Shown piece by piece: positions 8,486 to 50,109 of a stretch of DNA of 50,212 nucleotides. This stretch comes from Escherichia coli (lineage in GTDB: Bacteria; Pseudomonadota; Gammaproteobacteria; Enterobacterales; Enterobacteriaceae). The stretch lies in NCBI RefSeq assembly GCF_003334315.1, contig NZ_QOWR01000032.1. One strand, 5' to 3'. Numbering within the stretch: position 1 is the first letter of the stretch; every line of letters begins with the position of its first letter. Under the pieces are notes generated by a model, which did not search any database, had not been told where the DNA came from, and saw nothing but the letters and a program-made list of their open reading frames with translations. A program made the position numbers and the translations under genes.

Positions 8486-9418
8486 ATGTGGTCAGAATAT
8501 TCACTCGAAGTTGTTGATGCGGTAGCGCGTAATGGTAGTTTTAGCGCTGCGGCACAGGAGCTGCATCGCGTTCCTTCTGCGGTCAGCTATACCGTGCGTC
8601 AGCTGGAAGAGTGGCTGGCGGTGCCGCTCTTTGAACGACGGCACCGTGATGTGGAGCTGACCGCTGCTGGAGCGTGGTTTCTCAAAGAAGGGCGCTCTGT
8701 TGTCAAAAAAATGCAGATCACCCGCCAGCAATGTCAGCAGATAGCGAACGGCTGGCGCGGTCAGTTAGCTATCGCAGTGGATAATATTGTCAGGCCAGAA
8801 CGTACACGGCAGATGATCGTTGATTTTTATCGCCATTTTGATGATGTCGAACTTCTTGTCTTTCAGGAAGTGTTCAACGGTGTCTGGGATGCGCTTTCCG
8901 ACGGGCGCGTGGAACTGGCGATTGGCGCAACACGCGCGATTCCGGTAGGCGGTCGTTATGCCTTCCGGGATATGGGGATGCTAAGCTGGAGTTGCGTTGT
9001 TGCCAGCCACCACCCGCTGGCGTTGATGGATGGCCCATTCAGCGATGATACGTTGCGCAACTGGCCGTCGTTGGTGCGCGAAGACACCTCGCGAACGCTA
9101 CCTAAGCGTATTACCTGGTTGCTGGATAACCAAAAAAGACTTGTCGTGCCTGACTGGGAATCATCGGCAACCTGTATCTCGGCAGGATTATGCATAGGGA
9201 TGGTGCCAACACATTTCGCCAAACCGTGGCTTAATGAGGGGAAGTGGGTAGCATTAGAACTGGAAAACCCCTTTCCGGATTCGGCATGTTGTCTGACATG
9301 GCAGCAAAATGATATGTCGCCTGCGTTAACCTGGTTGCTTGAGTATCTCGGCGATAGTGAGACGCTGAATAAGGAGTGGCTGCGGGAGCCGGAAGAGACT
9401 CCCGCAACGGGTGATTAA
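8486..9418 (+). CDS. ydhB: YdhB (PunR) LysR-family transcriptional regulator (310 aa)
   Basis: ORF 310 aa; N-terminal LysR helix-turn-helix ([27 protein letters not shown]); divergent from ydhC. Confidence 0.88.
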
Positions 9419-10440
9419 CGACGATAGTCGCGGAACGGGCCGTCAGCCACGGAGCGGCGTTCAATCAAGCGCGGATGCACTTCAATGGACTGCGGTTCTT
9501 CACGTTTGTTGACGATACGATCCAACAGCATGTTGAACGCTGTTTCACCCAGCGAGTCTTTTGGCTGATGGATCGTGGTCAGCGCCGGCGTAAAATAGCG
9601 GGCGTTGCGCACGTTATCATAACCGATCAGCGAAACATCCTGCGGGACGCGCAGGCCCATTTCATCAGCAGCACAAAGTGCGCCCATTGCCATGATATCG
9701 CCACCACAGAAGACGGCAGTAGGGCGATGCGGCTGCGACAGGATTTGCTGCATGGCGCGATAACCGGATTCAGGTTCAAAATCACCCTGCACAATCCAGC
9801 TTTCCGGCACCTTGATCATTGCTTCTTCCATCGCCTTCATAAAACCGGCAAGGCGGCCTGCGCCAGTGTTACGTTCCAGCGGGCCGGGGATAACGCCGAT
9901 TTCGCGGTGACCGCGTTCAATCAGATAACGCCCGGCCATGTAGCCGCCTTCGAACGCGTTATCAATGACCGCATCGGTGAAGTCAGCTTTTGCTTCACCC
10001 CAGTCCATCACCACCATTGGGATATGGCGATACTCTTCCAGCATCGCCAGCAACGGCTCTGGGTACTCAGAACACATCACCAGCAGACCATCGACGCGTT
10101 TTTGCGCCATCATCGACAGATAAGCCCGCTGTTTCTCAAGATTGTTCCACGCATTACCCAGAATCAGGGTGTAACCTTTCTGGAAGCAATTTTTTTCAAC
10201 CGCTTCAATGATCTCGGCAAAATAGGCCGCTTCGCTGCTGGTCGCCAGCAAACCGATAGACTTGGTGTGGTTAACCTTCAGGCTACGCGCCACCGCGCTA
10301 GGGGAGTAGTGTAATTCTTTAATCGCTGCCCACACGGCGTTGCGCGTTTCTTCAGCGACGAAACGTGTTTTGTTGATCACGTGTGACACAGTTGTAGTGG
10401 AAACGTTTGCTCGTTTCGCTACATCTTTTATTGTTGCCAT
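9415..10440 (-). CDS. purR: Purine repressor PurR (341 aa), LacI family
   Basis: ORF 341 aa [33 protein letters not shown]...; stop codon overlaps the ydhB stop (TTAA at 9415..9418). Confidence 0.95.
10397..10412. promoter_or_regulatory. PurR operator (pur box) inside the purR 5' coding region
   Basis: GTGGAAACGTTTGCTC, close to the pur box consensus centred on AAACGTTT; purR is known to be autoregulated through operators downstream of its transcription start. Confidence 0.6.
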
Positions 10441-10484
10441 TCCATTTCACTCCAGACCCTAACTTCAGCTCCTGCAAAATCGCA

Positions 10485-10500
10485 AGGTAAACGTTTGCCT
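10485..10500. promoter_or_regulatory. PurR operator (pur box) in the purR 5' leader
   Basis: AGGTAAACGTTTGCCT, about 45 bp upstream of the purR start codon; second copy of the AAACGTTTGC core. Confidence 0.6.
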
Positions 10501-10738
10501 TTACACACCTTACGCACAACAAAAGTGTTGCGGTACGCCGGAAAAACGACACGGAGCGTCAGGAAGGGGTCAATGGCCAGTACGCAAATAGTGTAAGCGT
10601 GGAATTTTGGCCGATCTTGACGAAAAGGGGAAGTGGTAAAAACACTTATCATTATAAATGACGGGAGATTTTTTCATCACAGTGTGTAAAAATGCGTAAT
10701 ATCACTTTTTGTGTGGTAATAAAAAAGGAGAAAACTTG

Positions 10739-10828
10739 ATGAGCACCGACCTTAAATTTTCACTGGTAACAACGATTATCGTCCTCGGTTTGATCGTAGC
10801 CGTGGGTTTGACTGCCGCGCTGCACTGA
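10739..10828 (+). CDS. ynhF: YnhF small membrane protein (29 aa)
   Basis: ATG at 10739 preceded by AAGGAG RBS; translation MSTDLKFSLVTTIIVLGLIVAVGLTAALH (single TM helix); matches my memory of K-12 YnhF. Absent from the ORF track because it is below the length cutoff. Confidence 0.65.
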   Translation: MSTDLKFSLVTTIIVLGLIVAVGLTAALH

Positions 10829-10993
10829 TTTCCTCTCGAGGGAGCGCGTTCTCCCTCGCATCTCCTTCCTGTTTGTTAGCAAAATGGCAAAAGTGTTTTC
10901 TCTTTTTGTTATTTTCATTTTTTTGTGATTGCTGTCATGCTTTCGCCACTTTAATGAATATCGCGTAATGACGCGAAGAGGTGGAGATAAGGC

Positions 10994-23701: not shown

Positions 23702-24223
23702 ATGAAACGTTTTAGTCTGGCTATTCTGGCGCTGGTTGTTGCAACCGGCGCACAAGCTGCCAGTGAAAAAGTCGAGATGAACCTCGTCACGTCGCAAGGG
23801 GTAGGGCAGTCAATTGGTAGCGTCACCATTACTGAAACCGATAAAGGTCTGGAGTTTTCGCCCGATCTGAAAGCATTACCCCCCAGTGAACATGGCTTCC
23901 ATATTCATGCCAAAGGAAGCTGCCAGCCAGCCACCAAAGATGGCAAAGCCAGCGCCGCGGAATCCGCAGGCGGGCATCTTGATCCACAAAATACCGGTAA
24001 ACATGAAGGGCCAGAAGGTGCCGGGCATTTAGGCGATCTGCCTGCACTGGTCGTCAATAATGACGGCAAAGCTACCGATGCCGTCATCGCGCCTCGTCTG
24101 AAATCACTGGATGAAATCAAAGACAAAGCGCTGATGGTCCACGTTGGCGGCGATAATATGTCCGATCAACCTAAACCGCTGGGCGGTGGCGGTGAACGCT
24201 ATGCCTGTGGTGTAATTAAGTAA
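23702..24223 (+). CDS. sodC: Periplasmic Cu/Zn superoxide dismutase (173 aa)
   Basis: Start chosen at MKRFSLAILALVVATGAQAASEK (signal peptide) within ORF 23651..24223; Cu/Zn-SOD motifs (GFHIHAKGSC, HVGGDNMSDQPKPLGGGGERYACGVI). Confidence 0.9.
   Translation: MKRFSLAILALVVATGAQAASEKVEMNLVTSQGVGQSIGSVTITETDKGLEFSPDLKALPPSEHGFHIHAKGSCQPATKDGKASAAESAGGHLDPQNTGKHEGPEGAGHLGDLPALVVNNDGKATDAVIAPRLKSLDEIKDKALMVHVGGDNMSDQPKPLGGGGERYACGVIK

Positions 24224-47313: not shown

Positions 47314-50109
<2,796 letters not shown>

Follow-up and report, generated by a model that had tools for sequence, protein, structure and literature searches.

The purine repressor PurR of Escherichia coli recognizes the pur box, a 16-bp imperfect palindrome (ACGNAAACGTTTGCNT) with a central CpG and AAAC/GTTT arms (PMC3159470). 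The boxes of purF, purT, purHD and purL consist of this same ACGNAAACGTTTGCNT palindrome and are bound by PurR in a co-repressor-dependent manner, as is the site pair at the purR gene itself. Unlike the purR sites, however, the purF-type sites cover the -35 and -10 elements or the spacer separating them and thereby prevent initiation, an arrangement found at 14 of 32 promoters (PMC3159470), and they repress more strongly than the purR pair. A second arrangement is represented by purB and purR, where PurR binds within the reading frame and halts elongation, PurR being at the same time a regulator of its own gene (PMC3159470, citing He and Zalkin 1992). The purB gene (He and Zalkin 1992) resembles purR in having an intragenic PurR box downstream of the promoter at which elongation is blocked, but its one site (AGGTAACCGATTGCGT, 21.3 bits) is far inside the gene and is graded stronger than the two purR sites. 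The designation of PurR as a roadblock repressor is also found in further literature.

Autoregulation of purR through two sites located downstream of its promoter is, according to its title, the subject of the report by Rolfes and Zalkin (1990). The operators purRo1 and purRo2 of E. coli K-12 belong to the same locus as the pair analyzed here, and their sequences, AGGCAAACGTTTACCT and GAGCAAACGTTTCCAC, are identical to ours without any difference. In that 1990 study, O1 is said to lie downstream of the transcription start but ahead of the start codon, and O2 within the coding sequence; both sites are reportedly needed for a 2-3 fold autoregulation, and both are said to bind PurR more weakly than the purF operator does. 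The present analysis concerns a 50,212-nucleotide stretch of an E. coli contig (NZ_QOWR01000032.1), referred to below as the window, in which O1 and O2 very probably serve as the operator pair for repression of the E. coli purR gene by its product. This pair is already known, and what the initial annotation re-identified is a textbook case, dating from 1990, of a repressor that autoregulates through two weak sites downstream of its promoter. Added to the known system here is the co-occurrence of O2 with one residue of PurR, Asn12, a modest and testable point.

The purR locus and the position of the two operators

The purR coding sequence occupies positions 9415..10440 of the minus strand in the list of open reading frames (341 amino acids plus stop codon), with the ATG at 10440-10438. 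K-12 derivatives, DH5alpha among them, match positions 9300-10800 at 100% identity. Of 5426 complete E. coli genomes, 5425 contain the segment, annotated as punR/purR/cydH. The neighboring gene punR/ydhB (plus strand, 8486-9418) is convergent with purR, and the stop codons of the two genes share 4 bp (9415-9418). The assignment of the purR start is based on the identity of residues 2-341 to the crystallized purine repressor chains (PDB 1PNR/1QPZ and others), on the maintenance of the N terminus in 80 species, and on a 3-periodic conservation that begins at the ATG. A likely ribosome-binding site, GGAG, is located at 10450..10453 of the minus strand, 10-13 nt 5' of the ATG, and the block that surrounds it (TCTGGAGTG) is almost unchanging across the 80 Enterobacteriaceae species. 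The initial annotation had considered that the operators support the choice of the start codon; the start codon itself was right, but the operators contribute little to its assignment.

The strings AGGTAAACGTTTGCCT and GTGGAAACGTTTGCTC were located on the plus strand of the window at 10485-10500 and 10397-10412, respectively. Since purR is encoded on the minus strand, these strings, which are the ones quoted in the initial annotation, are the antisense reading of the sites. In the sense orientation, O1 (10485..10500, minus strand) is AGGCAAACGTTTACCT and lies in the 5' leader at -60..-45 from the ATG, whereas the intragenic O2 (10397..10412, minus strand) is GAGCAAACGTTTCCAC and spans +29..+44, i.e., codons 10-15. 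These codons encode the R-A-N-V-S-T peptide that forms the turn of PurR's own helix-turn-helix, and their position within the open reading frame places O2 within the transcribed region. The centers of O1 and O2 are 88 bp apart in E. coli, one on each side of the purR ATG. The annotated range, 10395-10500, thus does contain both sites flanking the ATG, and the pur-box core attributed to them is indeed complete, both O1 and O2 retaining AAACGTTT. When compared with the pur-box consensus ACGCAAACGTTTGCGT, O1 shows three mismatches and O2 five, the latter by hand count.

The published data agree with this identification, as the initial annotation had anticipated. The 16-mers of O1 and O2 are both among the known PurR sites of RegulonDB (PMC2585596 Table 2), and the motif given for the purR peak in a PurR ChIP-chip experiment, in which binding was detected with adenine, is O1 (PMC3159470 Table 1). 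That experiment reported one motif for the purR region, two sites 88 bp apart being beyond its resolution (PMC3159470). In genome coordinates, O2 corresponds to 1737872-1737887 and the center of O1 to 1737791 (PMC5110547). The comparison with published operator coordinates had been proposed as a check on the annotated pair. With the purR start at its presumed genomic position, the O1 coordinates of the PurR study and the O1 and O2 coordinates of PMC5110547 fit -60..-45 and +29..+44, and annotation and published sites agree.

Motif scores and chance expectation

To score the sites, a PurR weight matrix was derived from 27 motifs, the purR motif being left out, of the PurR ChIP-chip peaks published by Cho et al. 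(2011; PMC3159470 Table 1); on this matrix the validated-site cut-off of P<1e-4 (Cho et al. 2011) equals about 7 bits. O1 reached 21.7 bits (P 3.3e-8), which makes it the top PurR-matrix match of the 50-kb window and places it 7th among 28 PurR sites, in the upper third of the validated ones. With the same matrix, built without the purR site, O2 reached 9.5 bits (P 3.6e-5), and just 2 of the 27 other ChIP-supported sites, which span 6.4-25.4 bits, fall below it. The matrix scan that had been proposed to challenge the annotation therefore left O1 far above the threshold, whereas O2 passed it marginally and came close to being rejected.

The number of matches scoring at least as high as O2 that are expected by chance is about 3.6 per window and about 336 per genome, and eight other loci of the window outscore O2 on the PurR matrix; according to our own arithmetic, the chance of a match of at least 9.5 bits at most 100 bp from O1 is about 0.014. 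The score by itself secures O1 but not O2. Because about 3.6 equal or better matches are expected per window, O2 is established by conservation and by the literature rather than by its score, and it illustrates a case in which the matrix score alone would not separate an operator from chance matches.

The AAACGTTT core occurs five times in the window versus 1.3 expected, and none of 100 shuffles attained five copies. Apart from those in O1 and O2, two copies are in a pair of sites 78 bp apart, GATAAAACGTTTTATC (48957-48972) and GGTAAAACGTTTTATC (49035-49050), which we take to be the known MalI boxes; this pair is intergenic, between a malX-like open reading frame and a LacI-family one (MalI) that starts at 49081. 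The MalI boxes resemble the purR pair in having the AAACGTTT core and in being paired operators at the repressor's own gene, but they have other flanks (GATAAAACGTTTTATC) and are outside the top 20 PurR-matrix matches. Taken as a control, they indicate that the AAACGTTT core is a feature of the LacI family and no PurR signature, so that more than this core is needed to recognize a PurR site. The last copy, at 23705, is by coordinate mapping the start of sodC (ATGAAACGTTT), and it was judged to be a chance occurrence.

Conservation of O1 and O2 in the Enterobacteriaceae

The conservation of the two sites was analyzed in purR loci from 80 Enterobacteriaceae species whose coding DNA is just 81-84% identical to that of E. 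coli. All 80 species have O1, at -57..-60, and all 80 have O2, at +29..+44, with the sequence GAGCAAACGTTTCCAC in 33 of them, GCGCAAACGTTTCCAC in 44 and single-base variants in the remaining 3. Within E. coli, a 121-bp segment that spans O1 and O2 is maintained at 99% identity or more in 5338 of 5425 genomes.

Within O2, the third positions of codons 11-14 (GCA AAC GTT TCC) are 99-100% fixed in the 80 species, in a gene where fixation at 97% or more is seen for just 17 of 322 degenerate codons. The normalized synonymous entropy of codons 11-14 is 0.02, compared with a gene mean of 0.63, and none of 100000 random four-codon sets had an entropy as low; the lowest synonymous entropy in purR begins at codon 11 whatever the window size tested, from 4 to 13 codons. 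When the 4608 synonymous encodings of RANVST were ordered by their PurR-matrix score, the E. coli sequence ranked 9th and that of the CGC-type species 1st, the median encoding scoring -8.8 bits. Since these codons are frozen synonymously and the natural encodings are near-optimal, the O2 DNA is under selection that exceeds the requirements of the protein. Both O1 and O2 are under purifying selection, the synonymous positions of O2 included. The constraint at synonymous positions proves that O2 functions at the DNA or RNA level, without showing which protein reads it.

The spacing between O1 and O2 ranges from 85 to 88 bp across species. This drift disfavors a strict helical phasing or looping of the two sites and is still compatible with a roadblock. 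PurR is a dimer that lacks a tetramerization domain, which is consistent with a loose spacing.

Three further codons located beyond O2 (10372-10395), Thr16 ACA, Ser19 TCA and Asn23 AAC, are also 99-100% fixed in the 80 species, ACA and TCA being non-preferred codons. Therefore, the synonymous constraint reaches about 30 bp past O2. On the 5' side of O1, positions 10528-10630 (-88..-190 of purR) are about 90-100% conserved across the 80 species, and on the purR strand this block contains a hairpin with a T-run after it (10561..10547). A structured RNA element in the purR leader was nevertheless unsupported, the folding energy being unremarkable (z = -0.94).

Asn12 and the distribution of O2

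The central AAC of O2 is supplied by codon 12 of purR (10405..10407, minus strand), which encodes Asn12 and is AAC in all 80 Enterobacteriaceae species. Every PurR sequence with an identity of about 89% or higher has Asn12 (RANVSTT), whereas all those at 85% identity or less, 95 of 120 PurR homologues, have glycine at this position (RAGVSTT). The residue thus separates the Enterobacteriaceae, which alone have Asn12, from the genera that supplied the Gly12 homologues: Erwinia, Pantoea, Yersinia, Serratia, Providencia, Hafnia, Pectobacterium and Xenorhabdus. Gly also occupies position 12 in more distant PurR-like representatives (55% and 59% identity), and it is the commonest residue at the equivalent position of related LacI-family proteins.

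Two sequences that appeared to depart from this distribution were discarded. An Asp12 "intermediate" (P0014/L090) is a chimera or a paralogue on a 1.6-kb metagenome contig of 0.41x coverage, and it was rejected because its N terminus and its GC-rich upstream region are unrelated; an Asn12 sequence at 80% identity (P0116/L091) comes from an ordinary Enterobacteriaceae locus whose assembly contains a frameshift.

O2 was absent from the eight Gly12 loci examined (L081-L088), where the corresponding position scored between -5 and -27 bits and free variation was seen at codons 11-14. The pur-box core is incompatible with a Gly codon, and the best possible O2 encoding with Gly12 reaches 2.3 bits; for a Ser12 encoded by AGC, a score of up to 10.1 bits would be attainable. 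At these same loci, O1 is weaker than in E. coli or missing: it scored 17.7 bits in Pantoea, 12-13 bits in the Erwinia, Yersinia, Hafnia and Pectobacterium loci and only 4.7 bits in Xenorhabdus, and was effectively absent in Providencia and in Serratia microhaemolytica.

By parsimony, we infer from this distribution that O2 would have arisen together with a Gly-to-Asn replacement at the base of the Enterobacteriaceae. It is conceivable, although we consider this reading tentative and just short of evenly balanced, that selection for the DNA element O2 fixed the Gly12-to-Asn change in the ancestor of the family and then froze four codons synonymously, the AAC codon completing the AAACGTTT core and O2 acting as a second autoregulatory site that GalR, or an antisense cydH/STnc550 promoter, might also use. 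If this were true, the sister families with Gly12 would show weaker purR autoregulation or none. The comparison itself offers a small, clean case of mutual constraint between regulatory DNA and protein sequence within the same 16 bp, O2 being confined to the Enterobacteriaceae, coinciding with the Gly-to-Asn change and holding four codons fixed at synonymous sites. A recent review reports that the purR autoregulatory site is absent from Vibrio and Pasteurellaceae and says nothing further on its lineage distribution. A literature search for lineage-specific purR sites yielded no mention of a link between Asn12 and O2, although one may exist.

Other possible functions of O2

Because the conservation of O2 does not indicate by itself which protein binds there, O2, and to a lesser extent O1, might be mainly a GalR operator or a site shared by PurR and GalR, in which case the conservation would reflect GalR binding or cross-talk. 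We regard this as unlikely, although it is the alternative that fares best. A GalR ChIP-chip peak confirmed by ChIP-qPCR was found at ynhF/purR, and the GalR sites inferred there, GTGGAAACGTTTGCT and AGGCAAACGTTTACC, are exactly O2 and O1 (PMC5110547). When the window was scanned with a GalR matrix made from 17 other GalR sites, O2 was the best match (13.7 bits) and O1 the third (9.7 bits), and GTGGAAAC, which makes up one half of O2, matches the GalR half-site perfectly. GalR operators are, like the purR sites, LacI-family 16-bp palindromes with a central CG, but their consensus is GTGNAANCGNTTNCAC, with arms GTG..AA.C, and the purR sites score below bona fide GalR sites: the GalR scores of both O1 and O2 are under those of all 17 training sites (17-23 bits). 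Moreover, the GCGCAAAC form of O2 that is present in 44 of the 80 species shifts the other half of the site toward the PurR consensus and away from that of GalR. The expression of ynhF/purR showed little or no GalR-dependent change (PMC5110547), and RegulonDB assigns both O1 and O2 to PurR (PMC2585596).

A second alternative, which appears rather improbable, is that the target of O2, in addition to or in place of purR, is a plus-strand transcript that would start near the purR ATG and run antisense through the leader into cydH (ynhF; 10740-10829), so that O2 would overlap the -35 region of the corresponding promoter and O1 would be inside the transcript. Such a transcript would be consistent with the Rfam match to RF02081 (STnc550, an enterobacterial sRNA) at 10441-10831 of the plus strand (396 bits), which covers the whole purR-cydH intergenic region and cydH, is antisense to the purR leader and O1, and begins one base past the purR ATG. 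By eye, TATTGT (10429-10434) and TTGCTC (10407-10412) are weak candidates for the -10 and -35 elements of a transcript starting near 10441, and O2 would occupy positions -44..-29 of that promoter if the 5' end of STnc550 is real. In addition, a marbox-like sequence, GCTCGTTTCGCTACA (10409-10423, plus strand; purR codons 6-10), shares 4 bp with O2 and is one mismatch away from the sequence predicted to be bound at a Salmonella MarA/RamA ChIP peak in purR<>ynhF (PMC10268841), and the additional synonymous constraint at codons 16, 19 and 23 might also be accounted for in this way. In contrast, a consensus scan of 10380-10760 detected no sigma-70-like site on either strand, the candidate -10 corresponds to codons 3-4, which are variable among species, and a better-looking cydH-proximal -10, TAATAT, is present near 10698-10703 (by eye). 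Furthermore, the 5' end of the STnc550 model is the exact gene boundary, and since both coincide, this end may reflect the definition of the intergenic region rather than a mapped transcript end; a literature search gave no mention of STnc550.

Finally, that O2 is a by-product of coding for the helix-turn-helix peptide R-A-N-V-S-T, with no regulatory role, is most improbable: its score does fall inside the chance expectation for a 50-kb window, and the first and second codon positions are fixed anyway because the amino acids of O2 are invariant, but O2 is curated as an experimentally known site (RegulonDB; PMC2585596), and the by-product reading is effectively refuted by the synonymous-site result, that is, by third positions of a fixity rare in the gene, by the high rank of the natural encodings, and by the free variation of the same codons in the Gly12 species.

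Autoregulation of purR through O1 and O2

Repression of purR by its own product through O1 and O2 thus remains the preferred reading of the site pair. According to this proposal, a PurR dimer carrying hypoxanthine or guanine would bind O1 in the transcribed leader and O2 at codons 10-15, and the bound repressor would most likely act as a partial roadblock to the elongating RNA polymerase. The roadblock is proposed because both O1 and O2 are downstream of the promoter. The location of O1 downstream of the transcription start is derived from the title of the 1990 paper and from the conserved block upstream of O1, the consensus scan of 10380-10760 having returned no sigma-70-like promoter for purR on either strand. 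The sub-optimal match of the sites, above all that of O2, would fit a modest negative feedback that requires both of them, and the feedback is reportedly of about 2-3 fold. What the analysis itself shows is the sequences of the sites, their positions, their motif scores and the selection acting on them; that PurR binds, that both sites are required and that elongation is obstructed is taken from the literature.

Minor observations

In E. coli HB101 (NZ_CP178859.1), the 121-bp query that spans both operators aligns from base 32 onward only, in two places that are unannotated, which suggests a rearrangement or an insertion within the first purR codons. Elsewhere in the window, an Rfam match to HPnc0260 ("bacterial antisense RNA"; 112 bits) was found at 1568-1730 of the plus strand, opposite tandem tRNA-Val genes whose matches are at 1695-1768 and 1776-1849 of the minus strand, and HPnc0260 probably matches there only because it is antisense to tRNA.
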